Assembly: GCA_964497325.1 (NCBI GenBank)
Contig: CAZCCM010000002.1
Coordinates: forward strand, 1-32,000
DNA: 32,000 nt
Direction of reading: 5' to 3'
DNA from: an uncultured Lachnospiraceae bacterium
GTDB taxonomy: Bacteria; Bacillota; Clostridia; TANB77; CAG-508
In this document: one piece after another, positions 39 to 32,000 of the stretch
Numbering within the stretch: position 1 is the first letter of the stretch
Layout: each line of letters starts with the position of its first letter
Program-made: the position numbers and the translations under genes
Notes under the pieces: model-generated
What the model saw: only the letters and a program-made list of their open reading frames with translations
What the model was told of the DNA's origin: nothing
The model's database searches: none

Positions 39-75
39 ATTTTCCTTTTATTTTTATTTAATCATTACTTTTTTA

Positions 76-135: not shown

Positions 136-138
136 TTT

Positions 139-1695
139 TTATCTTTCAAAGGTTTCTCCCTTTTGTTCTTCTTCTTTTTGTTCTTCTTCTTTTTTTATCA
201 CTTCTATTACTTTTCTTACTTCTATCTCCTCAGTTATATTTCTATCTAAATAATCAACTCCTGCTCTTAATCCAATAAATTCTTCTAATAAGTAGTCTGA
301 ACCTTCTTCAAATCTAGCACAATCCTCTGGATTTTTATATAGATTTTCTAAGTATTTTTCCCTATCTATGCTATCAATATGCTCATGTTGAAATCCTAAA
401 GCTCCTATATATTTTTCTTTTTGTTCTTTATTAAATACGATAGATTCACCTATGGGTTCTAACATCATATTTATAATAGCTCTTCCTGTTCTTCCATTTC
501 CATCTGGAAAAGGATGTATTCTTATAAATCTATAATGTATTCTGGAAATTTCTTTAATATAGTTTTCTTTGCTCATATTATCTTTATTCTTAATAACCTG
601 AACCATATATGATGTTAAATGTCCCATTGCTTTTTCTGTATATTCTTTAGGTACTACTTTTATTTTTTTAGCATTGCTCGCCATTTGTACCTCTATATTT
701 CTATATCCATTTTCTCCATAATATTTAAAATTAGGTAGTATGGTCTTATTGATTTTCTTTAAATCTTCTTCTATTTCTTTAGGTTCTTTATTTTCTAATG
801 ATGTTGTCATTACTTTTAATTGTGCTAACACATCAGCATATACTTGATTAACTGTATCTAAACCTTTTGTAGGATTTATAGTTTGGCTATTAACATAGTC
901 TAATATTTCTGAGATCATTTGATTCTTAAATCCTGTATAGCCTTTTGATTTATTACTTAAATCTACTATTAATTTTCCGGTTTTTGCTTTTTCTTCTAAA
1001 TCTTTAGTAAAAGCTGTATTCATAAATAAATTTTTAACTATAAAATTTGCTGTGTTTTTTGAAACCTCTGGATCTAAATTTTCGGATAAAATTTCTGTAT
1101 AGTCATTAATTATTTGATCTGTATCTTTTTTCCTTCCTAACATTTTATTAAAGAAAGTACTTATTGGATATTTTCTACTTATTTTATTATTATTGTTTAT
1201 TAAATTTTCTACAAATGGTTCTAATACTAACTGTTTAATTTCATCTAATTGTTCTGTATCTTTACCTATAATACACTTACCTATATCATCTGCAATTAGA
1301 TTTTTAATTTCAATTTTTTCAATTTCATTTCCATCTTGAGACATTTTTTTTATTAAAGGTAAATCAAGGGTTGGTCCTAATATTTTAATTTCATCTTTAT
1401 TTTTAGGTTTATATTCATTAGGAATATAGTATGTAGTCATTACATCTCTTACAGTTTTACTATTTATTGTATGGCTGTTTTTTAAAAATTGAACAATTAA
1501 TTCTTTAACATCAGATTTTTTTAAAAAACTTTCATAAGATTTTATTTCTCCTTTTGTATTTACTACTGTAGATTTACATTCATTTGATATGATTTCTATA
1601 ATTTTATTAATATCTTCATTATATAAGTCAATATCAGAAATTGCTTGTTCATCTTTTAAAAGTTTTTGATAAATTATAGATGCTTTTTCTCTCAT
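139..1695 (-). CDS. Fic (Fido) domain protein, putative AMPylase, with a ~380-aa N-terminal extension
   Basis: 518-aa ORF with the canonical Fic motif HPFPDGNGRTGR (aa 394-405). AGGGAAA RBS upstream. Acidic EEEQK repeat tail at the C-terminus. Confidence 0.85.
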   Translation of the reverse strand: MREKASIIYQKLLKDEQAISDIDLYNEDINKIIEIISNECKSTVVNTKGEIKSYESFLKKSDVKELIVQFLKNSHTINSKTVRDVMTTYYIPNEYKPKNKDEIKILGPTLDLPLIKKMSQDGNEIEKIEIKNLIADDIGKCIIGKDTEQLDEIKQLVLEPFVENLINNNNKISRKYPISTFFNKMLGRKKDTDQIINDYTEILSENLDPEVSKNTANFIVKNLFMNTAFTKDLEEKAKTGKLIVDLSNKSKGYTGFKNQMISEILDYVNSQTINPTKGLDTVNQVYADVLAQLKVMTTSLENKEPKEIEEDLKKINKTILPNFKYYGENGYRNIEVQMASNAKKIKVVPKEYTEKAMGHLTSYMVQVIKNKDNMSKENYIKEISRIHYRFIRIHPFPDGNGRTGRAIINMMLEPIGESIVFNKEQKEKYIGALGFQHEHIDSIDREKYLENLYKNPEDCARFEEGSDYLLEEFIGLRAGVDYLDRNITEEIEVRKVIEVIKKEEEQKEEEQKGETFER

Positions 1696-4317: not shown

Positions 4318-6594
4318 TTAACGACTTCCTCCGCCGCCGCCTCCGAAGCCGCTACCTCCACCAGATGTAAAGCCTCCTCCACCTCCAGATGATCCTCTAA
4401 AACCACTTGTTGATTCCATTTTAGCTCTTCTTGCATTTTCATTTGCCATTGTACTTGCTTTTACTATATTATTTCTTGAAGTATTTACACTGTCTGATAT
4501 ATACCATAAATTATTTGATTCTCTAAAAGAGGGATTTGAACGTTCTAATTCTGTAATAATTTGTGGATGTACTTTCTTTAATGTTTCTAATACTTTACTT
4601 GCTATTCCAAAATATGTGGCTAATACTAGAAATCCCCCCCAAATTACTATAGATTGTTCTGGATATTCTGCTATAAAAGAGTCATTGTTTAAAAAATTAT
4701 ATAATCCCTTATATTCTTCTTTTATATTTTTACCTTCATCTGTTAGATGTGGTTTTAATCTATTAACTTTAATTTTTTCCAATAATACAAATGTTAAAGA
4801 TGTTATTAAAGTGAGTCCTGCAGCTATTAAATATTGAAATTCATTAAATTGTAGTTTTCCAATTAAGTTTCTTAACAATATATATACGAAAATTGATAAT
4901 AAAATAATTGGAATCCTTGGTGTAAATATTAATGAATTATATTGTTCTTCTTTTGCTAAACTATATATTCCTTCTATTGTTTCTCTTCCTTTTTCTTTTA
5001 CTATTAAAGCTTTATATTTTGAATTAAATGAAGTAAATCCATACACTAAACGATCTATTAATTGATATTGTTCTATATATATAATTTCTTTATTCTCTTT
5101 TAATTCTCCTATAAATATGTCTTTAGCACGTGTAAATACTTCTGCTGGTAAATTTGAATTATTCTTTTTTAAAGCTGCTATTATCTTTTCTTTATAATTT
5201 AAAGGTCCTATTTGAGAAGCTGAATACACATATTTCATAAAGTTAATAACTTCTAACTCATCTGGTTCTAATTTGTTTAATCTTCTAGCTTCTTCTATTG
5301 CTTTATTATTTAATTTATATCTTATATTTTCTAAATCTTTAAGACTTAGATGTAATTTCATTGCTTTATCTGATCTAATATCTTTTTCGGCATCTATAAC
5401 TACTTTAGCAATTTCTACTGGATCTCCTACTAAACCTAATTCTGAACAAACTTTTTCAGTAATTTTTATTTGATTCATTAAAATTTCATCAACAAGATCT
5501 ATAGAGCCATCTACTTTTTCTTTAATTGGTATAATTTCTATATATTTTTTATATGATAATTTCATTAATACTGTTATTAAAAAATTCATTGCTCCTTTAT
5601 CTTCATAAATAACATTTGCAGCCAATATATTCAGTTTTGTTTGAGGAAAATCTGTATATTTTCCCCATTTTCTAATAAATTCTTCTGGAAATTCTTTCCT
5701 TACTTTAATTATTTGAGCTATTTGATAAATTATAACTATTCCAACAAATAGCATAATCGGTATAGTTGCTTTAAATATTTTACTATTTCTATTTTCATTA
5801 TTTATACTTGCTATTTTAGTATTTTTTGTGTTTATTCTTTCTTCAGATAATATATATTCTTTACCATTTATCCCTATTTCTAAAGCATTAGGTACTAATT
5901 TGTTTGAAAACATTACCCTTCCTTCAACAAATGTATTTATTGGTATTTTACTAGCTTTTATTTCTACATTTCCATTTACAAAGTTTATTTCTCCAGAAGG
6001 TGCTCCATGTCCCCAAATTAAAGCTGTTTCTGCATTTAACGAAGAAGGAAATGATATTACTGCATTGAATTTTTCAATAGGTAAAGAAAAGTTTTTTCCA
6101 ACAAACATGTGATTGTATTCTGCAATATCTTTATACTTCTTTACAGGTCCATCAACAATATACTCAATCTTATACTTCCTTCTACCTATTTGATGTTCTA
6201 ATCCTACTCCCCATCCTATTTCAAAATTACCTCTATACATACCTGCATGAAAGTTATTTAATTTTTCTTTTCCATCATATGCTATATTTTTATTTTCTTG
6301 CATAGGAATCCATGAATTTGAAGATTTGTCAAAATATGAGACTTTAATATTAGAAAAATTATCTATCCCTGCAGTATCAAAAGACTGATACAGTGTACTT
6401 GAATTGACTATCTTTACATCCCATATGTCTTCAACAAAAACTTTTCCATCAACTTGAACTTCTGTCTTTATATTTCTCTTTTTAATTCTTTCTTTGTTTA
6501 AACTATATATAACTATTCCGGATAAAATTATAAAAATTAATATTAATATTGCTGTCGCTCTAAAATATTTATTATTTTTAAATTTTTCAATCAT
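4318..6594 (-). CDS. DUF2207-family membrane protein, paralogue 2
   Basis: 758 aa with the same architecture as paralogue 1 and a near-identical Gly-rich tail (GGGGGFTSGGGSGFGGGGGGSR). AAGGAG RBS. Confidence 0.85.
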   Translation of the reverse strand: MIEKFKNNKYFRATAILILIFIILSGIVIYSLNKERIKKRNIKTEVQVDGKVFVEDIWDVKIVNSSTLYQSFDTAGIDNFSNIKVSYFDKSSNSWIPMQENKNIAYDGKEKLNNFHAGMYRGNFEIGWGVGLEHQIGRRKYKIEYIVDGPVKKYKDIAEYNHMFVGKNFSLPIEKFNAVISFPSSLNAETALIWGHGAPSGEINFVNGNVEIKASKIPINTFVEGRVMFSNKLVPNALEIGINGKEYILSEERINTKNTKIASINNENRNSKIFKATIPIMLFVGIVIIYQIAQIIKVRKEFPEEFIRKWGKYTDFPQTKLNILAANVIYEDKGAMNFLITVLMKLSYKKYIEIIPIKEKVDGSIDLVDEILMNQIKITEKVCSELGLVGDPVEIAKVVIDAEKDIRSDKAMKLHLSLKDLENIRYKLNNKAIEEARRLNKLEPDELEVINFMKYVYSASQIGPLNYKEKIIAALKKNNSNLPAEVFTRAKDIFIGELKENKEIIYIEQYQLIDRLVYGFTSFNSKYKALIVKEKGRETIEGIYSLAKEEQYNSLIFTPRIPIILLSIFVYILLRNLIGKLQFNEFQYLIAAGLTLITSLTFVLLEKIKVNRLKPHLTDEGKNIKEEYKGLYNFLNNDSFIAEYPEQSIVIWGGFLVLATYFGIASKVLETLKKVHPQIITELERSNPSFRESNNLWYISDSVNTSRNNIVKASTMANENARRAKMESTSGFRGSSGGGGGFTSGGGSGFGGGGGGSR

Positions 6595-6795: not shown

Positions 6796-7897
6796 TTATT
6801 TGAATCTTTTTATAATCTCATCGACTATTCTTTTACTTGCAAACCCATCTCCATATGGATTATGTGCTTTACTCATTTTATCATATGCTTTTTTATCATC
6901 TAATAATTTTTTTGTTTCATTATATATTAGTTCCATATCTGTACCAACTAATTTTAAAGTACCTGCCTCTATTCCTTCTGGTCTTTCTGTTGTATCTCTA
7001 AGTACTAATACTGGTTTACCAAGTGATGGAGCCTCTTCTTGTAATCCTCCACTATCTGTTAAAATTATGTATGATTTATTCATAAAATTATGAAAATCTA
7101 ATACTTCAAGTGGTTCTATTAACTTAACTCTATCAGTATTACCAAAAACTTCTTTTGCTACACTTCTAACCTTTGGATTCATATGTATTGGATATACTAC
7201 TTTAACATCACTATATTCATCTACTATTCTTTTTATTGCTAAGAAAATTCTTTTCATAGGTGCACCTAGATTTTCACGCCTATGTGCAGTAAGTAAAATC
7301 ATTCTATCTTTTCCTACCCATTCTAAAACAGGATGAGTGTAGTTTTCTTCTACAGTATATGCCATTGCATCTATAACTGTATTACCTGTTACAAAAATAT
7401 CTTCTTCCTTTTTTCCTTCATTTATTAAATTTTTAGCAGAAGTTTCTGTTGGTGCAAAATGCATATTTGCTAAAACTCCTACCATTTGCCTATTTGCTTC
7501 TTCTGGATATGGCGAATACATATTCCATGTACGTAGTCCTGCTTCAACATGTCCGAATTTGTACTTGATTATATAAGGCTGCTAATGCTCCAGCAAAAGT
7601 AGTTGAAGTATCTCCATGTACTAATACAATATCTGGTTTTACCTCTCTAATCACAGTTTCTAATCCATTTAAAGCTCTTGTTGTAACCTCAGCCAGTGTT
7701 TGTCCCTGTTTCATAATGTTCAAATCATAATCAGGTTTTATTTCAAACGCATTTAGTACTTGATCAAGCATCTCCCTATGCTGTGCTGTAACACAAACTA
7801 TGCACTCAATTTCTTTTCTATTTTGTAGCTCCTTTACTAAAGGTGCCATTTTTATTGTCTCTGGTCTTGTACCGAAGATTGTCATTACTTTAATCAT
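6796..7897 (-). pseudogene. wecB: UDP-N-acetylglucosamine 2-epimerase (non-hydrolysing), split by a 1-nt frameshift, copy A
   Basis: ORFs 7544-7897 ([34 protein letters not shown]) and 6796-7521 (MYSPYPEEANRQM..) are the two parts of one WecB/MnaA-type epimerase. Reading [15 protein letters not shown] upstream of the second ORF restores the conserved motif. One extra base (plus-strand g at 7555) separates the frames. Confidence 0.85.
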
Positions 7898-8012
7898 TTT
7901 TAAACTCTTTCTTATTCTTTTTTATAATAAATAAAAATTTAATATTATATTTAATAAATCTTTTCATCCTAACTGGTTCCTTAACAATTCTATATAACCA
8001 TTCAATATTATA
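6796..8012. repeat. 1217-bp perfect direct repeat, copy A (wecB plus the 3' end of tagA)
   Basis: Compared line by line with 13164-14380 (offset 6368). I found no mismatch. Confidence 0.95.
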
Positions 8013-8618
8013 TTTAATAAAAAATTTTGGTGCTCTTTTCTTTTTTCCACCTAATATATCAAGAGCCCCTCCTACTCCGATAAAAATTCCTTTTTTAAAT
8101 TTATGTAAGTTATTAAATATAATCTTTTCTTGTAAAGGAACTCCTTGCCCTACTAATACAATATCTGGTTTTAATTTTGCAATCTCATCAAAGACACTAT
8201 CTTTATCTTCAACATATCCATTACTTGTTCCTAATACAGTAACATTTGGATATTTTTCAAAAATATTTTCTTTTACAAGGATAAGTACCTCATCTGTAGT
8301 TCCAAACATATATACACTTTTTGTTAATTCATTGGCATAAGATAATAATGTATTAACAATATCAATTCCAGGAATTCTTTCTTTAATATTATATCCCAAT
8401 CTGTTTCCTAATTTTACAATTGATATTCCATCAGGAACAATAGTGGTAGAATCACTCAATAATATATCTCTAAAGTCTTTATTCTCATGAACTAATACGA
8501 AAGCCTCTGGATTTGCTGTAATAATAAATTTTTTATTTTCATCTTTTAAGTCGTTATATATTTGATTATTAAATTCTTCTTCTCCATCTTTAAATATTTT
8601 TTCAAATATTTTTTTCAA
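7890..8618 (-). CDS. tagA: WecG/TagA/CpsF-family glycosyltransferase (ManNAc-type transferase)
   Basis: 242 aa with family motifs [30 protein letters not shown] and [19 protein letters not shown] start with an AAAGGAG RBS. Overlaps the wecB start by 8 nt. Confidence 0.85.
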
Positions 8619-11785: not shown

Positions 11786-12918
11786 TAAAAAATTCCTCCT
11801 AGATAAACAGATTTTTTATACATTGGCTTCATTTCTTCCCATTGTACTATTATTTTATCTGCAATAGGTTCAGCTATTTTTCCTGCCAATGTTTTTGTTG
11901 TAATATTAGCATAAGTTTCAATATATATTACCTTTTTCCCAAATAATTTTGCAATATATATCATTGGTATTGCAGTATGTGTACCAGTAGTAATAATCAT
12001 GTCTGGCTTAAATTTTAAAAAGATATTTAAAGATTTAAAGAAATTAAATAAAATTATAAAGAAATATTTAAAAGGATTTCTTCTAGTTCCAAATTTAACA
12101 TATTCAACATTCTTATATTTTTCTTTTAAAAATTCTGTTACTAAACTTTTTTCAGTAACTATTAAAGAATCATATTTTAATATTAAAGAATCTAGACATA
12201 AAAGTTCTGATAAATGTCCTCCCATGCTAGATATAAATATAATTTTATGTTTTTTATTTTGCTTTTTTATTTTTTGTTCATTATTTACCTTTAAAAAATT
12301 TTTTTTAAGTTCTTCTAACTCAGCTTTTGGAGTTTTTTCTACTATTCTATTTCCTTCTCTTTTTATAAAAATCAAGGAAATTGTTTTGAAAAATATTTCC
12401 AAATCTAACTTAAAAGACATATTATCCACATAATATATGTCATATTCTATTCTCTTCATCATGTCTAAATTTTTTCTACCATTTACTTGTGCGTAACCAG
12501 TAATTCCTGGTAATACATCTAATCTTCTTTTTTGTTCTTCAGTATAATATTGCAAGTTTTCTACCATCCAAGGTCTTGGACCAATAAATGACATATCTCC
12601 CTTTAATACATTTATGACTTGTGGAATTTCATCTATAGAAAATTTACGCAATATCTTTCCTACTTTAGTAAGATCACAATCTTCATCTTGACAAAAACAA
12701 TCATGATTTATGCTATATGATCTAAATTTATATAAGTAGAAAGGTTTTGAATTATACCCTGTTCTTTCTTGTTTAAAAAAAATAGGACCTTTAGATTCTA
12801 TTTTAATACTTATAATTATAATTAAAAATAGAGGCCAAAAAAATATACCTGCTATTATAATTAATAGAGATAATATTATATCTAAAATTCTCTTAACAAT
12901 TAAATACAAATTTTTCAT
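11785..12918 (-). CDS. Fusion: initiating phosphoglycosyltransferase (bacterial sugar transferase) plus Alg14-like (PssD/Cps14F) domain
   Basis: 377 aa. The N-terminal ~190 aa carry a TM helix and the motifs KPFYLYKFRS, DEIPQVINVLKGDMSFIGPRPW and GITGYAQV. After a Lys-rich linker, an Alg14-like domain follows (IIFISSMGGHLSEL .. IITTGTHTAIP .. IETYANI). Confidence 0.8.
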   Translation of the reverse strand: MKNLYLIVKRILDIILSLLIIIAGIFFWPLFLIIIISIKIESKGPIFFKQERTGYNSKPFYLYKFRSYSINHDCFCQDEDCDLTKVGKILRKFSIDEIPQVINVLKGDMSFIGPRPWMVENLQYYTEEQKRRLDVLPGITGYAQVNGRKNLDMMKRIEYDIYYVDNMSFKLDLEIFFKTISLIFIKREGNRIVEKTPKAELEELKKNFLKVNNEQKIKKQNKKHKIIFISSMGGHLSELLCLDSLILKYDSLIVTEKSLVTEFLKEKYKNVEYVKFGTRRNPFKYFFIILFNFFKSLNIFLKFKPDMIITTGTHTAIPMIYIAKLFGKKVIYIETYANITTKTLAGKIAEPIADKIIVQWEEMKPMYKKSVYLGGIF

Positions 12919-13068
12919 ATTCTTTTTTGCAAATAAGTTAAGAAAATTCTTAACACTATTTAGGGCAACTCCTTTTTTTATTAATATCAGTTTATCACTT
13001 TTTCTTTATACTTTCAATAAATTTTTATTTAAAAAAGTAGCTAAAATTACAATATAATAAAATTAAAA

Positions 13069-13099
13069 CACCCTTTCTTCTAGTTTGAATTAAAGGGTG
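13069..13099 (-). terminator. Rho-independent terminator closing glycan unit 1 (after wecB copy B)
   Basis: CACCCTTT/AAAGGGTG stem with a 15-nt loop. On the minus strand it is followed by TTTTAATTTTATT. Confidence 0.55.
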
Positions 13100-13163
13100 C
13101 TCTTTTAAAATATATTTCTTTTATTTATCAAATTTTTATTTTATTTCTATGTTTTTTATAATT

Positions 13164-14265
13164 TTATTTGAATCTTTTTATAATCTCATCGACTATTCTT
13201 TTACTTGCAAACCCATCTCCATATGGATTATGTGCTTTACTCATTTTATCATATGCTTTTTTATCATCTAATAATTTTTTTGTTTCATTATATATTAGTT
13301 CCATATCTGTACCAACTAATTTTAAAGTACCTGCCTCTATTCCTTCTGGTCTTTCTGTTGTATCTCTAAGTACTAATACTGGTTTACCAAGTGATGGAGC
13401 CTCTTCTTGTAATCCTCCACTATCTGTTAAAATTATGTATGATTTATTCATAAAATTATGAAAATCTAATACTTCAAGTGGTTCTATTAACTTAACTCTA
13501 TCAGTATTACCAAAAACTTCTTTTGCTACACTTCTAACCTTTGGATTCATATGTATTGGATATACTACTTTAACATCACTATATTCATCTACTATTCTTT
13601 TTATTGCTAAGAAAATTCTTTTCATAGGTGCACCTAGATTTTCACGCCTATGTGCAGTAAGTAAAATCATTCTATCTTTTCCTACCCATTCTAAAACAGG
13701 ATGAGTGTAGTTTTCTTCTACAGTATATGCCATTGCATCTATAACTGTATTACCTGTTACAAAAATATCTTCTTCCTTTTTTCCTTCATTTATTAAATTT
13801 TTAGCAGAAGTTTCTGTTGGTGCAAAATGCATATTTGCTAAAACTCCTACCATTTGCCTATTTGCTTCTTCTGGATATGGCGAATACATATTCCATGTAC
13901 GTAGTCCTGCTTCAACATGTCCGAATTTGTACTTGATTATATAAGGCTGCTAATGCTCCAGCAAAAGTAGTTGAAGTATCTCCATGTACTAATACAATAT
14001 CTGGTTTTACCTCTCTAATCACAGTTTCTAATCCATTTAAAGCTCTTGTTGTAACCTCAGCCAGTGTTTGTCCCTGTTTCATAATGTTCAAATCATAATC
14101 AGGTTTTATTTCAAACGCATTTAGTACTTGATCAAGCATCTCCCTATGCTGTGCTGTAACACAAACTATGCACTCAATTTCTTTTCTATTTTGTAGCTCC
14201 TTTACTAAAGGTGCCATTTTTATTGTCTCTGGTCTTGTACCGAAGATTGTCATTACTTTAATCAT
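13164..14265 (-). pseudogene. wecB: UDP-N-acetylglucosamine 2-epimerase, same 1-nt frameshift, copy B
   Basis: Nucleotide-identical to 6796-7897. The extra base is at 13923. Confidence 0.85.
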
Positions 14266-14380
14266 TTTTAAACTCTTTCTTATTCTTTTTTATAATAAAT
14301 AAAAATTTAATATTATATTTAATAAATCTTTTCATCCTAACTGGTTCCTTAACAATTCTATATAACCATTCAATATTATA
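13164..14380. repeat. 1217-bp perfect direct repeat, copy B
   Basis: Identical to 6796-8012. Confidence 0.95.
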
Positions 14381-14474
14381 TCCCAATCTATTTCCTGCTT
14401 TTACAATTGATATTCCACCAGGAACAATAGTGGTAGAATCACTCAATAATATATTTTTCAAATATTTCTTTCAA
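14258..14474 (-). pseudogene. tagA: tagA/WecG-family remnant with two internal deletions
   Basis: Retains the RBS plus TTG and the first codons (MKEIFEK), a 74-nt block homologous to 8394-8467, and the last 41 codons of tagA. It lacks the equivalents of 8013-8393 and ~8468-8597. The first part is out of frame. Confidence 0.85.
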
Positions 14475-23977: not shown

Positions 23978-24006
23978 ATTGACAAGGTGTCTTCATATGC
24001 TATAAT
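23978..24006 (+). promoter_or_regulatory. tRNA operon promoter
   Basis: Perfect consensus TTGACA-17 nt-TATAAT, ending 11 nt before tRNA-Gly. Confidence 0.75.
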
Positions 24007-24187: not shown

Positions 24188-24224
24188 AAAGAGATTTAGA
24201 AGCTTATTCTAAATCTCTTTTTAT
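24188..24224. terminator. Rho-independent terminator of the tRNA pair (bidirectional)
   Basis: Perfect 14-bp stem AAAGAGATTTAGAA/TTCTAAATCTCTTT with a 5-nt loop and a T-rich tail. Confidence 0.85.
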
Positions 24225-24320
24225 TTATGATTATATTTATATTTGTAGTTTTTTAATTTTATTTATGGTTTTTTATATTTATTTATGATTTTTTAATTTT
24301 TTTTATAATTTTATATTTTT
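24223..24320. repeat. Degenerate AT-rich tandem repeat, ~5 units of ~20 nt (ATTTATGRTTTTTTAWWTTT)
   Basis: ATTTATG/ATTTGTAG unit starts at 24223, 24241, 24261 and 24281, followed by a degenerate fifth unit. Confidence 0.6.
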
Positions 24321-24380
24321 ATTGCTGATACTCCCATTTCACGGTACATTTAATTAATAAAGAAGATACCTCTTTTTATT
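24321..24380 (-). repeat. Conserved 60-nt intergenic element, copy 2 of 3 (7 nt after the SbcC-like stop)
   Basis: Core CATTTCACGGTACATTTAATTAATAAA, with 2 mismatches to copy 3. Confidence 0.85.
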
Positions 24381-24387
24381 TTTTATA

Positions 24388-26295
24388 TTATCTCATCTCA
24401 ATATAATTATATTCTATATTAAATTGTTCCAAAACTTGTTTTTCTCTATCTGAACAAGTAAATAACAATACCTGTCTTTCTTCTACATTAACAAGATAAT
24501 TCAAAACATTTCTTAATCTATCATCATCATAGAATACAAATGTTTCATCTAAAAGAATAGGCATCTTCTCATCAGTTATCTCTTTTAATATGCTTAACCT
24601 TAAAGCAAAATTAATTTGTTCTATAGTACCTGTACTTAATTTTTCTAATTCAATATATTCACCTGTATTTAATTGAACCTTTATTTGTTGATCCTCTGAC
24701 AAAACTATACTCTTATACTCTCCATCAGTAATATTTTTAGTAATTTTAGAAAGGTTATTAACAAAACTAGGACTAATACTCTCTTTCATCTCTTCATAAG
24801 CATCATCTAATCCCGTTAATATAATATCATAAACTTTATTTAAATCATCTAAATTTCTCTTTTCTTCTTCTAACAGCTTTAATTTTTCTTCTAAAACAAC
24901 TAGTTTTTCCATTTTCGTATTTGCTATAACTTTTTTAGCATCAACTGTAGATAATTTAAACATAATTTGAGTATATTCAGAATCTACTTCTTTTTCTTCT
25001 TTGTTTAATTGTTCCAAGCTATAATCTAACATCCCTTGTAAACAATTATCTTCCAGACTACCACAAAATTCAGAAATAATATCTCTCTTAAAATTTTCTT
25101 CATCTTTTTCTTTCATCTTTTCAAGTTTAATTATCTCTTTTTCTTGCATCATAACTTCTTTACGAGTTGCATTTATTCCTCTTTCTATTTCCCTATTTTC
25201 TTCTTCCATTCTGTCATACTCATTATCAATATTACTTTTTTGTTTAAATGTAACAAATAGAAAAGCTAACAATGCCATTATAGGTACAGGTAATAGTGAA
25301 TATATAATTTTATTTAACTCTTTTGTTTTAAAAACTAATTCTATAAGTAAAAACACTAAAACTTCCAAGATTACAGATATAATACCTATAGCAAGATATA
25401 TCTTATTATTTTTCTTAAAAAATGATTCTTTTTTAAGAACATCATTTTTACTTTCTAATTTACTTCTAATATCATCTTGTTTTGTTTTAATACTTTCTTT
25501 AAAAGTATCAACTGTTTTTAAGCTTGATTCATTTAATATTTTATGTTCTTTTAATTTTGCAATTAATTTTCTCTTTAGATCTAATTCATTAAATTTCTTT
25601 CTAGTTTCCTTCTCTTCCTCACTAATACTACTCTTATCACTATGCTTTTCTTTAATATCTCTAATTTCTTGTCTAACACTTGATATCTTTTTTTCTACTT
25701 GATTAATTGGCATATTTTGTGTTTTTATTGTTCCAACCTCTTCACGCCTTTTATCTTGTATTTTCTTTTCTAATTTTTTATATGAAACATTATCTTCACC
25801 TGTTGAAATTAAATTACTAAGCTTTTGAACCATCTGAGTTTTATCTGATGAATTTAAAACTACAGAGTTTTGCATAGTATATGAAGAAAAAGCAAAAGAA
25901 GATTTATCGACTCCTGTCTGTTCTTCCATAAAACTTACACCTGTTTCTCTGTTAGTAGAATATTTTTTTGTAATATCATGATTTTTTGAATCTAAAACAA
26001 TAGTTTTTTTATTATTAAAATCTCTAAAAACTGTATATAATTCATTATTATCCAAATTATATTGAACAAAACCTGAAAATTCAGATGTATTCCAAGGCAT
26101 AAATCTTACATCATCTGAAATAACATCTTTTTTTCTAGTCTTTTGTATACCAAAAAAAATACTATTTAAAAAACCCATAATTGTAGATTTACCAGATTCA
26201 TTTTTACCTTGAATTAAATTAATAGAATCCGAAAATTTATATTCTTTATTTACAAGTTTACCAAAACCATTTATTTTAATGCCTTTTATCTTCAA
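24388..26295 (-). CDS. SbcC/Rad50-like (YhaN-type) ATPase with a central transmembrane hairpin
   Basis: 635 aa. TTG start with a GGGTGAG RBS. N-terminal Walker A GKNESGKST. Charged, coiled-coil-like arms. Two hydrophobic helices at ~aa 297-350. C-terminal signature-like LSTGT and Walker B ILLDETF. Confidence 0.8.
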   Translation of the reverse strand: MKIKGIKINGFGKLVNKEYKFSDSINLIQGKNESGKSTIMGFLNSIFFGIQKTRKKDVISDDVRFMPWNTSEFSGFVQYNLDNNELYTVFRDFNNKKTIVLDSKNHDITKKYSTNRETGVSFMEEQTGVDKSSFAFSSYTMQNSVVLNSSDKTQMVQKLSNLISTGEDNVSYKKLEKKIQDKRREEVGTIKTQNMPINQVEKKISSVRQEIRDIKEKHSDKSSISEEEKETRKKFNELDLKRKLIAKLKEHKILNESSLKTVDTFKESIKTKQDDIRSKLESKNDVLKKESFFKKNNKIYLAIGIISVILEVLVFLLIELVFKTKELNKIIYSLLPVPIMALLAFLFVTFKQKSNIDNEYDRMEEENREIERGINATRKEVMMQEKEIIKLEKMKEKDEENFKRDIISEFCGSLEDNCLQGMLDYSLEQLNKEEKEVDSEYTQIMFKLSTVDAKKVIANTKMEKLVVLEEKLKLLEEEKRNLDDLNKVYDIILTGLDDAYEEMKESISPSFVNNLSKITKNITDGEYKSIVLSEDQQIKVQLNTGEYIELEKLSTGTIEQINFALRLSILKEITDEKMPILLDETFVFYDDDRLRNVLNYLVNVEERQVLLFTCSDREKQVLEQFNIEYNYIEMR

Positions 26296-26307
26296 TTAAA
26301 TCTCACC

Positions 26308-27459
26308 CTACATACCTTTCATTTCTTCTAACACTATTTCTACTGCTTTGTATATTAATGATTGCTGTTTAGATATGTCTACAATAAGTTTTTCTTTTTC
26401 ACGAATAACATCTGGATCTGTTTCCTTCTGTAATCTTAATCTAATATCAGAAATACTGTTATCTAATTCTTTTATTTTATTCATATGATTTTTAACAAAT
26501 ATTCCTTTTAAATTAAACTCTTCTGATATTAGATCTAAATCCTCTGCAATTCGACTATTATCATATATTTTTATAATATTATTTTTTTCTATAAGTTCTT
26601 TTAATTTAATAATATTTACTTCAAAATTCTTTTCACCTTTAAGTATTATTTTTATAAAGTTCTCAGAATTTAAATCCATTTTATTAATATAATTAACTAA
26701 CTCTTCTTGTGACATAATATTTGTAATATCCAACTCAATTTCTTCATGCATCCTTTTGTCCAAAGGAACAAATTCCAAATTTAAAACTCCACCAAAAAAC
26801 TCTCCAACAACCATTCCATTTTGTTTGTTTCCACCAAACTTATATGACAAAATAGGTCCTGGATAAATAATTTTTGAAGTTTTATTAAAATTAGATTTGT
26901 GAATATGACCAAGCGCTACATAATCAAATGTTTTAGACTCAATTTCTCTTAAATTCATTGAATTATATCTTAATTCTTCTTTTGAACCATAGATATCTCC
27001 ATGCATAATAAGAATATTCTTTTTACCATTATTCTTTAACCTTATGCCTGAAATATTAAAAGGTTCTGAAACAAAATCAGTAAAACCATATCCATAAATA
27101 TTCACATCCTCATTTTCTATAACTTCAAAATCAGTAAAAATATGAACATTTTCTGGAAATTTAAAATTAGCATAAACCGAATTTTTTAAATATGGATCAT
27201 GATTTCCAGGAGTAATATATATTTTTGTTTTTGGAATTGTTGAAAAATATTTTATTATAGTATTTATAGTAGACTCTCTAATATACTCATGCTCATAAAA
27301 ATCACCAGCTATGAAAATATATTGAACATTCATAGTCTTTGCATAGTTAACTACTTCTTCAATTGCTTTTAATTGTTCTGTTCTTCTTGCATCACCATAT
27401 GGTCCAACATTATCAAATCTCATATCTAAATGAGTATCTGCTATATGTATAAATTTCAT
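26308..27459 (-). CDS. SbcD/Mre11-like metallophosphoesterase nuclease (YhaO-type DNA repair exonuclease)
   Basis: 383 aa with all calcineurin-like motifs in order: IADTHLD, AGDFYE, PGNHD, MHGD, LGHIH. Confidence 0.85.
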   Translation of the reverse strand: MKFIHIADTHLDMRFDNVGPYGDARRTEQLKAIEEVVNYAKTMNVQYIFIAGDFYEHEYIRESTINTIIKYFSTIPKTKIYITPGNHDPYLKNSVYANFKFPENVHIFTDFEVIENEDVNIYGYGFTDFVSEPFNISGIRLKNNGKKNILIMHGDIYGSKEELRYNSMNLREIESKTFDYVALGHIHKSNFNKTSKIIYPGPILSYKFGGNKQNGMVVGEFFGGVLNLEFVPLDKRMHEEIELDITNIMSQEELVNYINKMDLNSENFIKIILKGEKNFEVNIIKLKELIEKNNIIKIYDNSRIAEDLDLISEEFNLKGIFVKNHMNKIKELDNSISDIRLRLQKETDPDVIREKEKLIVDISKQQSLIYKAVEIVLEEMKGM

Positions 27460-27465
27460 TCTTAA

Positions 27466-29445
27466 TTATCCTTCTTTTGATTGTTTGTTTTCTTCATCAA
27501 TTTTTCCAAAAAGCTCATCAAACTTTGCTTCTAACTCTTTTTCTAAATCAAACTCTTCTTTATTCTTAAAACTAGCTATGTTATTTGTTTCTGTAACTAT
27601 AGTTTCTTTATCTTCTTTGCTTTCTTTTTCTTCAATATTATTAGGTTTTTGTTTTGCTACCTCTTTATTATCACTTACATTTTCTTCATCTTTAAACAAT
27701 TCCTCTAATCTTTCATTAACATCCTTAGAATTTTCTTTTTCATTTGGATTAAAAACTTTCCATTCTCCTCTATCTACAATATAATCATTATGATTTTCTT
27801 TATTAGAAGCTAAAAGAGATCTCATCTTTTTATCTGTATACCACATAGCTTTTTCTGCCTTAATAGGTTTAACTCCACTTTCATAAATAATACAATTAGA
27901 TTTTTCTAATCTTCTTAATTCATCAGGAGTCATTAAAACTCTAGCATAAATATTATCTGAATAAGTTTTAGATCTATCTTTTTCACCTTCTTCTTTTTCT
28001 GATCTTGAAATATTTTCTCTTGTTATAGTTTTTTCACCTAAGGCTTTAGAAAAATATTCTAAAGTTTTTTGAGAATTAGAACCTAAGAACAAATGTGTAT
28101 CACAATTTCCAACAATTGTTTCATGAGACTTTTCATAAACAGCTTCTAACTGATCCAAAGATTGTAATATTACCGAAAAAGAAATTCCTCTACTTCTAGA
28201 TGTAGATATTTTTTTATCAAAATCAGGTATTGCACCAATATTTGCAAACTCATCCAAAAAGAAATATGTTTTTACAGGAAGCGCACCACCACATTTATCT
28301 GCAAAATCATATAGTCTTTGTATCATTTGAGAGAAGAATAATGTTAATATAAAGTCATATGTTCCATGAGTATCAGATGAAATAACATATAATACTGTCT
28401 TTTTCTTACCTATTTCATCAAAATCTATTGTATTTGTTGATGTAAGACCAGCAATATCTTTAGGATCAAACTTACCCAATCTTGATTGTAATGTTGAAAG
28501 TATAGAACCAAAGGCCTTTTCTGGAGCTATTTCAACAGAAGAATAATTCTTTCTAGCAGGATGATCTGGAGGTAATTCATAAATTAAATCAGATAAAATA
28601 TTAATGTCTCCAGCTATATTTGCATTTCTAACTAATTCTGCTGCAGAAGCTAAATTTTGTTCCTCTTCAGGTCTTGCTGCAATCAAATAATATATCAAAG
28701 ATTTAAGTAAAATTTCTGCCATATCATCCCAATAAGGATCTTTAGATTCCCCACCTTGTCCCTTAACAATAGTGTGTGCAATAATATCAACATCTGCCTC
28801 TGAATTTATATTAACCAAAGGATTAAATCCATCACTATTTTCAGGTCTAACTAAATTTAAAACTTTAATATCATATCCATTTTTTCTAAAAAATCCAGCT
28901 GTATGCTCATATAGCTCTCCTTTAGGATCTGTGTACACATATGAACCATGAAGCAAGGTTGCATTTGGAGTAACATAAGAAGCAGATTTACCAGAACCAG
29001 AACCTCCAACTACAAGTACATTAGTATTTCCATATTTATCTAAAGGTAGGTATAAATTTTTAGCTAACAATATACCTTTATTTTTACTTAAAACTTTATA
29101 TTTTTCATTACCTGTCGCCCAGTCACCTGAACCCTGTTCAATTCCTTCATATCCTTGATCTCTATTACGTTGTATAATTGCAATTATAAGTAATGTCAAA
29201 AGAGCAACACCTAAAATACCCACTGTATAAAGATATATTTCCCTAACATCAGTTTTTAAACAATATTTTAAAGATTCAAAAGGTTTATTCCAAAACTTCT
29301 TATATATTGTACTAAAATTAACATTGAGTTTCTTTGCAAAATCATATGTTCTAATTAATGGTGGAAAGATTAATAACGATATTAAAATAAATACTGTTAC
29401 TACCCATATTACTGCTTTTAAATAAAATTTAGGTTTTTCATTCAT
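27466..29445 (-). CDS. VirD4/TraG-type type IV coupling protein (T4SS-DNA_transf family ATPase)
   Basis: 659 aa with two N-terminal TM helices, Walker A VVGGSGSGKS, Walker B YFFLDEFANIG, SVILQSLDQL and a long acidic C-terminal tail. Confidence 0.85.
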   Translation of the reverse strand: MNEKPKFYLKAVIWVVTVFILISLLIFPPLIRTYDFAKKLNVNFSTIYKKFWNKPFESLKYCLKTDVREIYLYTVGILGVALLTLLIIAIIQRNRDQGYEGIEQGSGDWATGNEKYKVLSKNKGILLAKNLYLPLDKYGNTNVLVVGGSGSGKSASYVTPNATLLHGSYVYTDPKGELYEHTAGFFRKNGYDIKVLNLVRPENSDGFNPLVNINSEADVDIIAHTIVKGQGGESKDPYWDDMAEILLKSLIYYLIAARPEEEQNLASAAELVRNANIAGDINILSDLIYELPPDHPARKNYSSVEIAPEKAFGSILSTLQSRLGKFDPKDIAGLTSTNTIDFDEIGKKKTVLYVISSDTHGTYDFILTLFFSQMIQRLYDFADKCGGALPVKTYFFLDEFANIGAIPDFDKKISTSRSRGISFSVILQSLDQLEAVYEKSHETIVGNCDTHLFLGSNSQKTLEYFSKALGEKTITRENISRSEKEEGEKDRSKTYSDNIYARVLMTPDELRRLEKSNCIIYESGVKPIKAEKAMWYTDKKMRSLLASNKENHNDYIVDRGEWKVFNPNEKENSKDVNERLEELFKDEENVSDNKEVAKQKPNNIEEKESKEDKETIVTETNNIASFKNKEEFDLEKELEAKFDELFGKIDEENKQSKEG

Positions 29446-29446
29446 A

Positions 29447-30097
29447 TTATATTTCCTTTTCTAAAGATGCATCTTTTAACTTCTGTTCTATGCACTTTCC
29501 AGAGTTAATTAATTCTATATATTTATCCACTCTTATTCTTTTAGCTTCTTCCTTACTTATATAAAGCTTTAAAATATTATTTTCGATTAATAATTGAGCT
29601 GCTCCTATCAATATTGACCTAAAAGCTTTATCTCTTAATTCTATTGTTACATATTTTTTACCGGCTTCTAAATTAACAATACCTTTCATCTCTCCAATAG
29701 AGTTAACATCAAAATCTGGCTCAACTTCATTTCCTGTTTCAATATCAATTATAAAAATTTTTCTTTCTACTGTTGGAGTATAATAGACTTCTACAGTCTC
29801 TGACTTTTTAGTTTCTATAAAATTTATTTTAGTTGAAACAGATGCTAATTTTAATATTCCTTTTGAATAAGTAGCAACATTAACAAACACTTGCTCTTTC
29901 ATTATTGATAATACAATAATATCTTTATCATTATTTGCATCTAAATAAAAGCTTCTTCTTATCTTATCACCTAAATTTTGTGACTTTGACTCTAACCTTT
30001 CTAATTTAGTATTTATTGTCCCCTCTTTAATTGGTTTGTCTATACTATACATTAGAGAAATTCTACCTTTAGGATCAACTAAATTAATAACTTTCAT
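29447..30097 (-). CDS. Hypothetical protein (216 aa, no recognisable domain), first gene of the four-gene operon
   Basis: AAAGGA RBS. Its stop codon is separated from the T4CP ATG by a single nucleotide. No TM helix or signal peptide. Confidence 0.6.
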   Translation of the reverse strand: MKVINLVDPKGRISLMYSIDKPIKEGTINTKLERLESKSQNLGDKIRRSFYLDANNDKDIIVLSIMKEQVFVNVATYSKGILKLASVSTKINFIETKKSETVEVYYTPTVERKIFIIDIETGNEVEPDFDVNSIGEMKGIVNLEAGKKYVTIELRDKAFRSILIGAAQLLIENNILKLYISKEEAKRIRVDKYIELINSGKCIEQKLKDASLEKEI

Positions 30098-30122
30098 ATT
30101 TTATCCTTTATATATTTTTTAT

Positions 30123-30182
30123 TTTGGCGGTACTCTCATTTTATGGTACATTTAATTAATAAATAATACGCCATTTTTTATT
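30123..30182 (-). repeat. Conserved 60-nt intergenic element, copy 3 of 3 (upstream of the four-gene operon)
   Basis: Core CATTTTATGGTACATTTAATTAATAAA. On the minus strand it contains TAAAAT (30138-30143), ~40 nt upstream of the ATG at 30097. Confidence 0.85.
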
Positions 30183-30185
30183 TTC

Positions 30186-30262
30186 TTATACTTTAATTTT
30201 TTATACTTTATTTTCTTATACTTTAATTTTTTTATACTTTAATTTTTTATACCTTTATTTTT
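30186..30262. repeat. Tandem repeat, 5 units of 15-16 nt (TTATACTTTAATTTT)
   Basis: TTATACTTTA at 30186, 30201, 30216 and 30232, and TTATACCTTTA at 30247. The last unit overlaps the 3' end of the AI-2E CDS. Confidence 0.8.
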
Positions 30263-31485
30263 CTTATTGTTGTTCCTTCTATTGTCTTATTGTCTTTTTT
30301 TTTAAGCTTAATACATATTTTTTTATCTAACAGTCTTTTTACTTTATTCTCTCTTATTTTATTATTTGTTGATTTATCAATTAAAGCCTTTATTGTTGTT
30401 AACACTGGAACGCCAAAGAACATGCCCCATACACCAAAATATGCTCCACCTATAGTAGTTGCTGCAATTACTAATATTCTACTAATTTTTAATTGTGTGC
30501 CTACTATTTTAGGTTGAATTATATTAGCATCAACTTGTTGTAATATTAAAATTACTATTCCAGCTTTAAATGCCAATACTGGTCCACTTGTTATAAGAGT
30601 CAAAGCTACAGCCAATATTCCTGCAGTAAGAGCTCCTATGAATGGAATTAAATTAAATAAACCTATTAAGAAACCTAGTAATACACCATATTTTACATCT
30701 AAAGATAGTAATGCAATAATCATTATAACACCAACAACAAAAGCATCTGTAAATTGAGAAACTATATACTTACTAAAAATATTATTAGCTGTTCTAATAG
30801 ATGTTAAAATTTTCATATAATTTTTTTTCTGAGTTCTTGCTTTTAAAAACCTTTTAAAATATATTGTTAATTCTTCACGATCAAATAATATATAGATTGA
30901 TATAATAAAAACTAAAACTAATTTAACTATAGATTTAATAGAATTTATAGCTCTATTAGTATAGCCTAACACTCTTTCTAAATTAAAATAATTTTCAATT
31001 TCTATCTTTAAATTTTCACTTGTTAATATATCTAGCTTTTCCATAACACTATCTGTTTTAAAATTCCCCAAAAAAGAATCAGCTGGAATACTATGTATAT
31101 AATTATTTATAGATTCAATATACTCTGGTATGTTTTTTATAATTTCAGTTAGACTGTTAAATATTATTGGAATTAAATATGCTAAGAATATACTTACAAC
31201 TACTAAAAATACTATACATACAACTCCAATACTTAATATTTTAGAAAAAGTAGGTGATTTAATATTTTTAAATACTTTGTTTTCTAAATAATTAGAAGGA
31301 AAATATAGTAGATAAGCTAACATTCCAGCAAAAATAAAAGGTTTAATTATTTCAAAAAACTTTCCTATAAATTCCATTGTAGTCGGTAAATTAGAAATTA
31401 ATCTATACAACAATAAAATAACAATACTAAATATTGCAATTTTTACAATTTGATTTTTATATTTTTTAAAAAAATTTGCTTCCAT
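30247..31485 (-). CDS. AI-2E family transporter (PerM/YhhT, UPF0118)
   Basis: 412 aa, ~8 TM segments, with the family-typical block LFNLIPFIGALTAG..ILQQVDANIIQPKIVG. GGAG RBS. Confidence 0.85.
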   Translation of the reverse strand: MEANFFKKYKNQIVKIAIFSIVILLLYRLISNLPTTMEFIGKFFEIIKPFIFAGMLAYLLYFPSNYLENKVFKNIKSPTFSKILSIGVVCIVFLVVVSIFLAYLIPIIFNSLTEIIKNIPEYIESINNYIHSIPADSFLGNFKTDSVMEKLDILTSENLKIEIENYFNLERVLGYTNRAINSIKSIVKLVLVFIISIYILFDREELTIYFKRFLKARTQKKNYMKILTSIRTANNIFSKYIVSQFTDAFVVGVIMIIALLSLDVKYGVLLGFLIGLFNLIPFIGALTAGILAVALTLITSGPVLAFKAGIVILILQQVDANIIQPKIVGTQLKISRILVIAATTIGGAYFGVWGMFFGVPVLTTIKALIDKSTNNKIRENKVKRLLDKKICIKLKKKDNKTIEGTTIRKIKV

Positions 31486-31627: not shown

Positions 31628-32000
31628 CTAAATTTTTATTTCTAATTCAACTGGGCAATGATCACTACACATTATATCTGGATGAATTTTAGAATCTATA
31701 ATGTTTTTTGCAATTCTGTTGCTTACAACAAAATAATCTATTCTCCATCCAACATTATTTTCTCTTGCTTTTCCAAAATATGACCACCAAGTATATGCAT
31801 CTTCCTTATCTGGATATAAATATCTAAAAGAATCTGTAAAACCAGACTCTAATAATCTTGTAAAGTCTGCTCTTTCTTCATCTGTAAATCCAGCACTTTT
31901 TCTATTAGTTTTAAAGTTTTTTAAGTCTATTTCTTTATGTGCAACATTAAGGTCTCCACATAATATTACAGGCTTAACTTTATCTAAACTTTTAAGATAC
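31628..32000 (-). CDS. xth: Exodeoxyribonuclease III, C-terminal part (gene runs off the right edge)
   Basis: Hand translation of the minus strand gives ..GDLNVAHKEIDLKNFKTNRKSAGFTDEERADFTRLLESGFTDSFRYLYPDKEDAYTWWSYFGKARENNVGWRIDYFVVSNRIAKNIIDSKIHPDIMCSDHCPVELEIKI*, with stop at 31628-31630. SDHCPV is the ExoIII C-terminal motif. Confidence 0.85.
   Translation of the reverse strand, partial: YLKSLDKVKPVILCGDLNVAHKEIDLKNFKTNRKSAGFTDEERADFTRLLESGFTDSFRYLYPDKEDAYTWWSYFGKARENNVGWRIDYFVVSNRIAKNIIDSKIHPDIMCSDHCPVELEIKI

Follow-up and report, generated by a model that had tools for sequence, protein, structure and literature searches.

A VirD4-type coupling ATPase gene linked to the SbcF/SbcE nuclease pair in a chromosomal locus of gut and rumen Clostridia

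What does a coupling ATPase of the conjugation type do in a chromosome where its neighbours are a Mre11/Rad50-like nuclease pair and no conjugation gene? The question is raised by four open reading frames (ORFs), all on the minus strand and numbered here in transcription order, in the first 32,000 nucleotides of contig CAZCCM010000002.1 (assembly GCA_964497325.1) from an uncultured Lachnospiraceae bacterium; this whole 32 kb stretch is referred to below as the window. The four genes encode a protein without annotation, here termed the partner protein, a type IV coupling protein (T4CP) of the VirD4/TraG type, and the SbcF and SbcE proteins:

29447-30097, minus strand: gene of the partner protein ("ORFan"), 216 amino acids (aa)
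27466-29445, minus strand: T4CP gene, 659 aa
26308-27459, minus strand: sbcF, 383 aa
24388-26295, minus strand: sbcE, 635 aa, TTG start

Successive ORFs are separated by 1, 6 and 12 nucleotides (nt), and the sequence GGGTGAG precedes the TTG start of sbcE. A preliminary description, made from the sequence alone, had reported these four ORFs, their gaps and the GGGTGAG element, and each was found in place.

We tentatively favour, with rather less than even confidence, the reading that the four genes form a membrane-associated module for DNA repair or processing, in which a HerA-like task, the handling of DNA at the membrane on behalf of SbcEF, falls to the T4CP, and the partner protein is a tail-binding subunit. 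The locus would then have arisen in one lineage by fusion of two chromosomal units whose linkage is ancient and which occur across a large clade of gut and rumen Clostridia. The first would comprise a domesticated VirD4-type coupling ATPase, no longer serving a type IV secretion system (T4SS), made together with a dedicated all-beta partner. The second would be the clostridial counterpart of SbcF/SbcE, a Mre11/Rad50-like nuclease-ATPase anchored in the membrane through a transmembrane (TM) hairpin at its coiled-coil tip and controlled by LexA (SOS) in most lineages. The membrane-anchored T4CP hexamer would bind or translocate DNA at the inner face of the membrane, taking the role that the HerA translocase has beside archaeal Mre11-Rad50, and membrane-bound SbcEF would process the DNA so held, at ends, hairpins or protein-blocked termini. 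The purpose would more likely be genome maintenance than defence against foreign DNA.

The coupling ATPase and the SbcF/SbcE pair

T4CPs are members of the FtsK-HerA superfamily and act as DNA-dependent hexameric ATPases. The T4CP of the window displays a two-helix N-terminal membrane anchor, formed by hydrophobic segments at residues 5-34 and 69-95, followed by an all-alpha domain and an intact FtsK/HerA-type nucleotide-binding domain. Walker A (GGSGSGKS) starts at residue 147 and Walker B (YFFLDE) at residue 394, both invariant in a 12-sequence alignment, so that the two TM segments and complete Walker motifs ascribed earlier to this protein are borne out. The protein matches the Pfam model T4SS-DNA_transf (PF02534) with E = 3.5e-79 and, over residues 141-521, TrwB_AAD_bind with E = 1.9e-27. 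It also reaches 418.3 bits, against a cut-off of 250, with the VirD4-like NCBIfam model conju_CD1115 (NF045973). Thus it resembles the conjugative T4CPs VirD4, TraG and TrwB and the CD1115 family of Firmicutes plasmids and integrative and conjugative elements (ICEs) in its two TM helices, all-alpha domain and Walker A/B domain, and scores above the equivalog cut-off of that family.

In contrast with conjugative T4CPs, the proteins of this clade have no relaxase, VirB4, DUF3801, PrgI or hydrolase gene near them. The window holds no relaxase, VirB4, integrase or other conjugation gene, and in 179 related loci (2.57 Mb) no relaxase, VirB4, MobC, DUF3801, PrgI or lytic transglycosylase (SLT) was found by a search that recovered the T4CP itself in 144 of them. 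When one genome of each GTDB species was scanned, at least 573 species genomes encoded a T4CP relative; 80 loci were fetched, whose labels point in nearly all cases to uncultured Clostridia of gut or rumen. T4CPs within the clade are 50-63% identical to that of the window, and those of a deep branch, L160, 43%. The best T4CP relatives on plasmids (72,556 plasmids searched) share 33-40% identity, restricted to the ATPase core at residues ~101-596, and the plasmid comparator is located among relaxase, DUF3801, PrgI and VirB4 genes. The clade T4CPs further differ from conjugative ones in being fixed in the core chromosome with apparently vertical descent, in an invariant C-terminal peptide and in an obligate gene for an all-beta partner. 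The VirD4/TraG-type T4CP is thus locally orphan and chromosomal, and it is not a decayed mobile element, since it is conserved, chromosomal, found with the same neighbours and without a T4SS nearby. The absence of conjugation partners noticed at first in the window extends across the related loci, and the contrary expectation, that a full conjugation module surrounds every homologue of this T4CP, is not borne out in this clade.

A large subclade (L054-L092, ~35 of the 80 loci; also L011, L095 and L121) encodes the T4CP as two overlapping ORFs in different frames, one for a membrane-anchor protein of ~160-170 aa and one for a soluble ATPase of ~520 aa. Its recurrence in many independent assemblies suggests a genuine split of the gene or a programmed frameshift.

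The third and fourth genes belong to the known SbcF/SbcE (YhaO/YhaN) family, as matched by profile, architecture and published description. The five SbcD/Mre11 phosphoesterase motifs expected of SbcF are all present (DTHLD at residue 8, GDFY at 52, GNHD at 85, MH at 152 and GHIH at 184). The protein matches Metallophos with E = 8.4e-15, and its best solved relatives are Mre11 (3qg5) and SbcD (7dog). Its score with the SbcD model TIGR00619, 51.3 bits, is under the cut-off of 77.65, which makes it a diverged SbcD-like protein and not a canonical SbcD. In loci L001 and L002 (positions 12015-13168 in each), from the one species 71% identical to the window, sbcF is present as the same three ORFs while the T4CP and partner genes are intact.

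SbcE matches AAA_27 (PF13514), the YhaN-type N-terminus, with 35.5 bits against a cut-off of 22. Walker A (GKNESGKS) is found at residue 30, the signature LSTG at 553 and Walker B (ILLDE) at 580; these motifs and the Q-loop are invariant in 30 homologues. The H-loop (switch) His is replaced family-wide by Thr-Cys-Ser/Thr (residues 608-618, of which Cys614, Arg617 and Glu618 are invariant), an unusual catalytic-site variant for a Rad50-like ATPase. No CxxC hook is present in SbcE, and the apex of its coiled coil is occupied by the following element:

25240-25410, minus strand: TM hairpin of SbcE, residues 296-352, at the zinc-hook position of Rad50/SbcC

The hairpin comprises hydrophobic segments 296-327 and 327-352 (hydropathy peaks 2.78 and 2.46), and its position is conserved across the family. 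In the AF2 model (pLDDT 79.6) a split head is joined to an antiparallel coiled coil (196-281 and 427-522), with TM helices 297-321 and 327-352 placed between the coiled-coil arms, and the top Foldseek matches are Rad50 and SMC heads (Rad50 best, at 1.9e-13). Thus the initial view of a Rad50/SbcC-like ATPase with head motifs at both ends and a central TM hairpin proved accurate. The sbcF gene adjoins sbcE in all 57 evaluable SbcE-anchored metagenome loci. Clostridial SbcE proteins measure 618-735 aa, with 635 in the window, and are about one third shorter than the 963-aa YhaN of Bacillus subtilis.

B. subtilis YhaN was named SbcE in 2009 and described as an SMC-like protein closest to SbcC, without the CxxC hook and with a unique hydrophobic, insoluble central domain (PMC2811018). 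It interacts with the SbcD-like YhaO (SbcF); both proteins contribute to transformation and to the repair of double-strand breaks, in competent cells they gather in polar foci, and deletion of sbcE mildly reduces transformation (PMC2811018). The LexA regulon includes the yhaONM operon (PMC2731908, PMC3896406), and the role of SbcEF is still described as poorly characterised (PMC6452273). The window pair resembles the Bacillus pair in gene order, with a Mre11/SbcD-like gene followed by that of a Rad50/SbcC-like AAA_27 ATPase, and in the hydrophobic central domain that stands in place of the zinc hook. A LexA-like box also stands upstream in most of the clostridial relatives. In contrast with B. 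subtilis, no yhaM-type exonuclease gene lies downstream of the clostridial pair, which adjoins the partner and T4CP genes, and in the window the pair is fused into their operon and has no LexA box.

The archaeal herA-mre11-rad50-nurA operons offer a second comparison, as in both cases the gene of a hexameric ATPase of the FtsK/HerA superfamily is linked to a Mre11/Rad50-type pair. This HerA-like linkage suggests a translocase cooperating with an end-processing nuclease. In contrast with the archaeal operons, the ATPase of the window is VirD4-type rather than HerA, NurA is missing, the all-beta partner has no match among solved structures, both complexes are membrane-anchored, and in most lineages the genes form two separately regulated units.

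The partner protein and the T4CP tail peptide

The partner protein has no match in Pfam, NCBIfam or PADLOC. This upholds its first description as an ORFan in part; it is no true orphan, as it belongs to a family of 4115 sequence clusters, for which no Pfam model exists. Residues 1-155 form an all-beta domain, and residues 157-216 a helical extension confined to the window lineage. The AF2 model (pLDDT 70.8) contains 13 strands and is predicted to be all-beta, and Foldseek comparison of this model with PDB and BFVD returned nothing meaningful, the best TM-scores being ~0.3 or lower. The protein is homologous to that of a ~170-aa gene directly upstream of the T4CP gene in distant loci, with ~30% identity and 29 invariant columns. 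Homology to DUF3801, whose gene lies upstream of T4CPs in conjugative elements, was rejected (hhalign probability 0.2%). The C-terminal extension of the window protein was also considered as a counterpart of the small variable ORF of other lineages; no similarity was seen by eye, and the small ORFs are poorly conserved.

The T4CP ends in a conserved peptide, which lies at the end of a variable acidic linker:

27505-27549, minus strand: T4CP C-terminal tail peptide, residues 633-647, D-LEKELEAKFDELFG

In the 12-sequence alignment D633 and E639-G647 are invariant columns. Each of 76 T4CPs terminates in D[IL]QKELEAKFDELFG preceded by a variable acidic linker, both with and without SbcFE next to it; the form ELEAKFDELFG is near-invariant in the clade, and the deep branch L160 keeps the variant KRFAELFG. 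The peptide is absent from the plasmid T4CP tail that was examined.

An exhaustive profile search placed the partner-like domain inside proteins of ~380-1050 aa that have TIR or protein-kinase domains at the N-terminus and Sel1 repeats at the C-terminus. Among the 37 fusion proteins examined (36 of 377-1049 aa and the 197-aa P0505), 15 contain a tail-like peptide upstream of the partner-like domain, at 49-96 residues (motif start 66-96), for example ELEAKFEELFG, ELVAKFEELFG or IDTRFKELFG. Matches away from this position number only three and are loose. From the fusion proteins, a hidden Markov model (HMM) built on the tail peptide retrieves only 7 and a regular expression 12, the poor recovery of the HMM being due to its nearly invariant training set. 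The fusion proteins include P0421 and P0453 (TIR), P0460 (protein kinase) and P0417, P0441, P0479 and others (Sel1 repeats), with loci L097-L099. They are encoded beside other TIR genes or within integrase/Fic-VbhA/Mu-transposase islands. The partner-like domains form an unannotated family that seems to serve in conflict or signalling proteins. The occurrence of peptide and domain fused in cis in TIR, kinase and Sel1 proteins suggests, by a domain-fusion argument, that in the locus the partner docks on the C-terminal peptide of the T4CP.

In the F plasmid, the C-terminal tail of the coupling protein TraD binds the relaxosome protein TraM. TraD and the clade T4CPs share a short acidic/aromatic peptide at the extreme C-terminus, after a disordered linker, with docking on a small partner as its proposed function. 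In contrast with TraD/TraM, neither the peptide sequence nor the partner is related, the small protein here is no known DNA-binding relaxosome component, and the interaction is proposed from domain fusions.

Another candidate receptor for the tail peptide is the substrate-binding domains of a J-domain protein. A protein of ~300 aa with DnaJ and DnaJ_C domains and no zinc finger (CbpA-like) is encoded upstream of the partner gene in essentially all loci of the arrangement termed A below (L004-L094). This neighbour is missing from the window lineage and from arrangement C.

A more specific version of the proposed module has the T4CP co-opted from conjugation as the core-genome DNA motor of a membrane Mre11/Rad50-type machine, which would make it a membrane-associated bacterial equivalent of archaeal HerA-Mre11-Rad50. 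The T4CP hexamer, under control of the partner docked on its tail, would feed DNA to the SbcEF nuclease or hold it there, and the peptide-domain pair would be a docking module that can be transferred between proteins and has been taken up again by conflict proteins of the TIR and kinase types. We consider this version possible, though doubtful as a whole.

Conservation, regulation and alternative roles of the module

A partner homologue lies directly upstream of the T4CP gene in 78 of the 80 species loci, and the other two are cut at that end. SbcFE adjoins the T4CP gene in 54 of 73 evaluable species loci (absent from 19; 7 not evaluable) and, seen from the other side, the T4CP gene adjoins SbcFE in 44 of the 57 evaluable SbcE-anchored metagenome loci. 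Three arrangements are found:

Arrangement A: DnaJ-like / ORFan / small ORF / T4CP / SbcF / SbcE / prfB
Arrangement B (window): xth / AI-2E / ORFan / T4CP / SbcF / SbcE / LemA
Arrangement C: murF-ddl-HD / SbcF / SbcE / ORFan / T4CP

The adjacency is thus no one-off of the window. Close relatives, with T4CPs 70-71% identical, carry the same block (AI-2E / ORFan / T4CP / Metallophos / AAA_27 / LemA). Where SbcE homologues are 33-38% identical a similar module occurs in another neighbourhood, in the order murF-ddl-HD / DnaJ-like / ~170-aa hypothetical / small ORF / T4CP / Metallophos / AAA_27 / prfB, and the deep branch L160 keeps arrangement A. One identical T4CP sequence occurs on 290 contigs and has the same neighbouring genes in 21 of the 24 longest, and one member of the clade is a complete circular genome of 1.57 Mb (OZ007016.1, with locus L075). 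The surroundings are conserved housekeeping genes and not a defence island or variable region, in which the preliminary description had suggested looking for such loci. The locus looks vertically inherited.

In most lineages the two gene pairs are transcribed separately. Of 77 loci, 73 have a strict promoter, TTGAC[AT]-N16-18-TA[TC]AAT, ahead of the partner gene; it corresponds to the sigma-A consensus, usually stands 60-70 nt before the start codon and occurs in 105 of 7477 background windows. Sporulation-specific expression is unsupported, the conserved promoter being a textbook sigma-A TTGACA-17-TATAAT. In loci L013-L092 the 60-70 nt between this promoter and the partner start hold a conserved 5' leader, for example GTGAGTTCGTAAACATAAGATAAACTATGGATTAAATCATAGGAATGGGGTG, and in 27 loci a hairpin, CTATG-N5-14-CATAG, stands directly before the ribosome-binding site; it may be a translational control element. 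The T4CP stop codon is followed by a terminator-like hairpin and T-run in 40 of 53 loci; among the controls it occurs in 21 of 228 windows taken within coding sequence, in none of 78 positions 3' of the partner gene and in 1 of 53 positions 3' of sbcF. In 35 of 53 loci sbcF is preceded by a second promoter with a LexA-like palindrome (for example AAACAAATGTTC or CGAAAAAATATTCG) directly upstream of it; the palindrome has a background frequency of 4.1% and stands before the partner gene in 3 of 77 loci. This distribution of promoters and LexA boxes points to vegetative-type expression of partner and T4CP versus SOS-type expression of sbcF-sbcE in most species.

In the window and its relatives the region between the T4CP gene and sbcF has gone (gaps 6-9 nt), and no LexA-like box is found in the window intergenic regions (gaps 6 and 12 nt) or in the relatives. 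A promoter scan of the window gave matches at or below shuffled expectation and is uninformative at 25% GC. From the sequence it is plausible that terminator, LexA box and second promoter have disappeared from the window lineage, so that the four genes are read as one operon. The single operon first described is therefore plausible for this lineage, where it probably extends upstream, and does not hold for most other lineages, where terminator and LexA-like box part the two pairs.

The proposed repair or processing module draws on the catalytic motifs, intact and invariant across homologues, and on the predicted helices that anchor both T4CP and SbcE in the membrane. It also draws on the conservation of the T4CP over deep divergence in a core-genome setting without T4SS genes nearby, on the persistent linkage of the two units in three arrangements and on the LexA-like boxes before sbcF, in line with the SOS regulation of yhaONM. 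Several findings weigh against it. The terminator-like hairpin after the T4CP gene and the LexA box on sbcF only mean that the units are transcribed and regulated separately in most lineages. In 19 of 73 lineages the partner and T4CP, with its tail motif intact, have no SbcFE at the site, 13 of 57 SbcFE loci have no T4CP, and B. subtilis SbcEF was described without a T4CP partner (PMC2811018). As arrangements A and C share a wider neighbourhood, much of the adjacency may be inherited synteny and not independent evidence. The frameshifts of sbcF in L001 and L002 are the same in two independent assemblies with the T4CP intact, and may reflect nuclease pseudogenisation in one lineage. Finally, the docking of partner and tail is a proposal drawn from domain fusions, and the fold of the partner yields no functional clue.

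Many of these observations would be accommodated if the two units were independent neighbours, SbcEF being an SOS repair nuclease, partner and T4CP being unrelated to it, and their adjacency ancestral synteny. The T4CP might then, for example, act in trans on visiting conjugative elements or move protein or nucleic acid by another route, and the single operon of the window would have arisen by intergenic deletion. The separate promoters and regulation, with a terminator between the units in most species, agree with this, as do the occurrence of either unit alone in about a quarter of loci, the conservation of tail motif and partner regardless of SbcFE and the synteny of the entire murF-prfB region. 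In contrast, the window lineage keeps the four genes together though both flanks differ, arrangement C swaps the order of the units with adjacency retained, and the window-lineage gaps are reduced to 1, 6 and 12 nt, a shrinkage implying that co-expression is tolerated or favoured. On balance we judge independence of the units to be unlikely, while giving it serious weight.

The preliminary description had put forward roles against incoming DNA, in which the membrane T4CP would capture DNA arriving by conjugation, phage injection or uptake and SbcEF would destroy it. Both T4CP and SbcE are indeed membrane-anchored, the partner-like domain and tail peptide recur in TIR and kinase proteins beside TIR genes or in integrase/Fic/Mu islands, and PADLOC reports weak similarities to mad8, LmuB and PDC-S10. 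These similarities are generic and at fold level (mad8 28 bits, LmuB 29, PDC-S10, the best, 43), and the partner has none. SbcE is distantly like Lamassu LmuB, Gabija GajA and Wadjet JetC in combining an ABC-ATPase head with a coiled coil (PADLOC E 1e-4 to 1e-8; the Foldseek matches include LmuB). In contrast with those systems, it has no family-level match to them, other partner proteins, a core-genome context and putative LexA-type regulation. Defence systems are usually patchy and horizontally mobile, and the locus, fixed in its housekeeping context across hundreds of species, is unlike that. The LexA-like boxes suggest that the nuclease is regulated as repair genes are, and the partner family has no relatives in 2.9 million viral contigs. 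Anti-plasmid or anti-phage activity is therefore less likely than membrane DNA repair or processing, given the housekeeping context, a nuclease pair that belongs to a known SOS-regulated family and the separation of the units; we regard defence or exclusion as improbable. The gene combination had also been called unrecognised, which holds insofar as no named defence or conjugation module matches it, and does not hold for the nuclease pair, which is a named family.

A role in natural transformation, with SbcEF trimming or degrading DNA at the site of uptake and the T4CP as motor or anchor, would fit the polar position of B. subtilis SbcE/SbcF in competent cells and the mildly lowered transformation of the sbcE deletion (PMC2811018), as well as the membrane location of both complexes. 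The gene tables that were read contain no comEA, comEC, comFA or pilin genes near any locus, natural transformation is not known in these uncultured lineages, and the putative LexA-type regulation fits damage repair over uptake. Such a role is thus highly improbable in our estimate.

Flanking elements of the window and meaning of the locus

The remainder of the window consists of a cell-wall polysaccharide cluster, LemA, DUF2207 paralogues, a Fic protein, an AI-2E-family transporter and two tRNAs, and its GC content is even throughout at ~25%. The elements flanking the operon are:

30247-31485, minus strand: AI-2E-family transporter gene (Pfam E = 4.1e-56), directly upstream of the partner gene
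30083-30260, minus strand: insertion between transporter and partner genes, consisting of one copy of a dispersed ~55-100-nt intergenic repeat and AT-rich 15-nt tandem repeats
24188-24220, no strand assigned: hairpin resembling a bidirectional terminator, located between sbcE and the convergent tRNA-Gly/tRNA-Cys genes
24281-24382, 30083-30184 and 25-145, minus strand: copies of the dispersed repeat, with cores at 24329-24357, 30131-30159 and 84-112

In relatives the transporter gene abuts or overlaps the partner gene (gaps 9, 21 and -14 nt). In the window no terminator lies between the two and only the inserted repeat separates them, and in this lineage the transporter gene is probably in the same transcription unit as the four genes. 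The C-terminal part of an exodeoxyribonuclease III gene (Xth/ExoA-type AP endonuclease) is found upstream of the transporter gene at 31633-32000, minus strand, running off the window end. Relatives share the order xth / AI-2E / partner with short gaps, so that a DNA-repair gene may head the transcription unit. At the other side, the hairpin at 24188-24220 is the likely 3' end of the operon.

The T4CP might also be a decaying remnant of an ICE integrated at the tRNA genes and standing beside a repair operon by accident. Two tRNA genes (tRNA-Gly and tRNA-Cys), convergent with the operon, are 200-370 nt away from it, and a repeat is found on both sides of the operon. The NCBIfam namesake of the T4CP model, CD1115, belongs to the block CD1115-8 of C. 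difficile 630, presumably the conjugative transposon CTn4. That block is strain-variable (PMC3224701). The window T4CP, in contrast, is intact with invariant motifs and keeps the same neighbours over deep divergence. Use of the flanking ~100-nt direct repeats as attachment sites was rejected, since a third copy (core 84-112) follows an unrelated gene and all copies lie 3' of stop codons; the repeat is thus a dispersed genomic element and not an attachment-site pair. With no integrase, relaxase or VirB4 in the window, uniform GC and conserved synteny, insertion at the tRNA site was rejected, and we give an ICE remnant almost no credence.

The dispersed repeat, TTATTAATTAAATGTACCATAAAATGnGAGTA with conserved flanks, occurs in three minus-strand copies in 32 kb, each directly 3' of a minus-strand stop codon (sbcE, the AI-2E transporter and Fic), and has no Rfam match. 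Two of the copies are bordered by AT-rich tandem repeats of 15-20 nt (24231-24318 and 30176-30260). Directly before tRNA-Gly/tRNA-Cys stands a perfect 12/12 sigma-70 consensus, TTGACA-16-TATAAT with an upstream TG (23979-24006, plus strand). Inside the polysaccharide cluster, 6796-8013 and 13164-14381 form a 1218-bp duplication with 100% identity. Each copy carries a UDP-GlcNAc 2-epimerase gene as ORFs of 117 and 241 aa, with the frameshift near 7521-7544 or 13889-13912; the duplication is either a very recent pseudogene duplication or an assembly artefact. Tandem DUF2207 membrane-protein paralogues of 749 and 758 aa, partly 83% identical in DNA, lie at 1791-4040 and 4318-6594, and DUF2207 and LemA genes also come after the module in relatives.

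The component families of the locus are known, and SbcEF is already named. In the searchable literature we found no description of a core-genome T4CP clade without nearby T4SS genes, of the obligate partner family, of the invariant tail peptide with its fused counterparts, or of the conserved linkage of T4CP and SbcEF. Annotation pipelines label the T4CP genes of this clade "conjugal transfer protein", which inflates counts of mobile elements in gut metagenomes. The partner domain and the ELEAKFDELFG-type peptide form an unannotated pair, split or fused, that provides an interaction hypothesis and a candidate for a new Pfam family. For SbcEF and its membrane anchoring, a conserved membrane ATPase as neighbour is a testable lead. 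T4CPs, finally, are defined by serving a T4SS, and a clade embedded among housekeeping genes and vertically inherited, with no conjugation gene within 7-10 kb and with members in hundreds of gut species, would show a role for these ATPases outside secretion.

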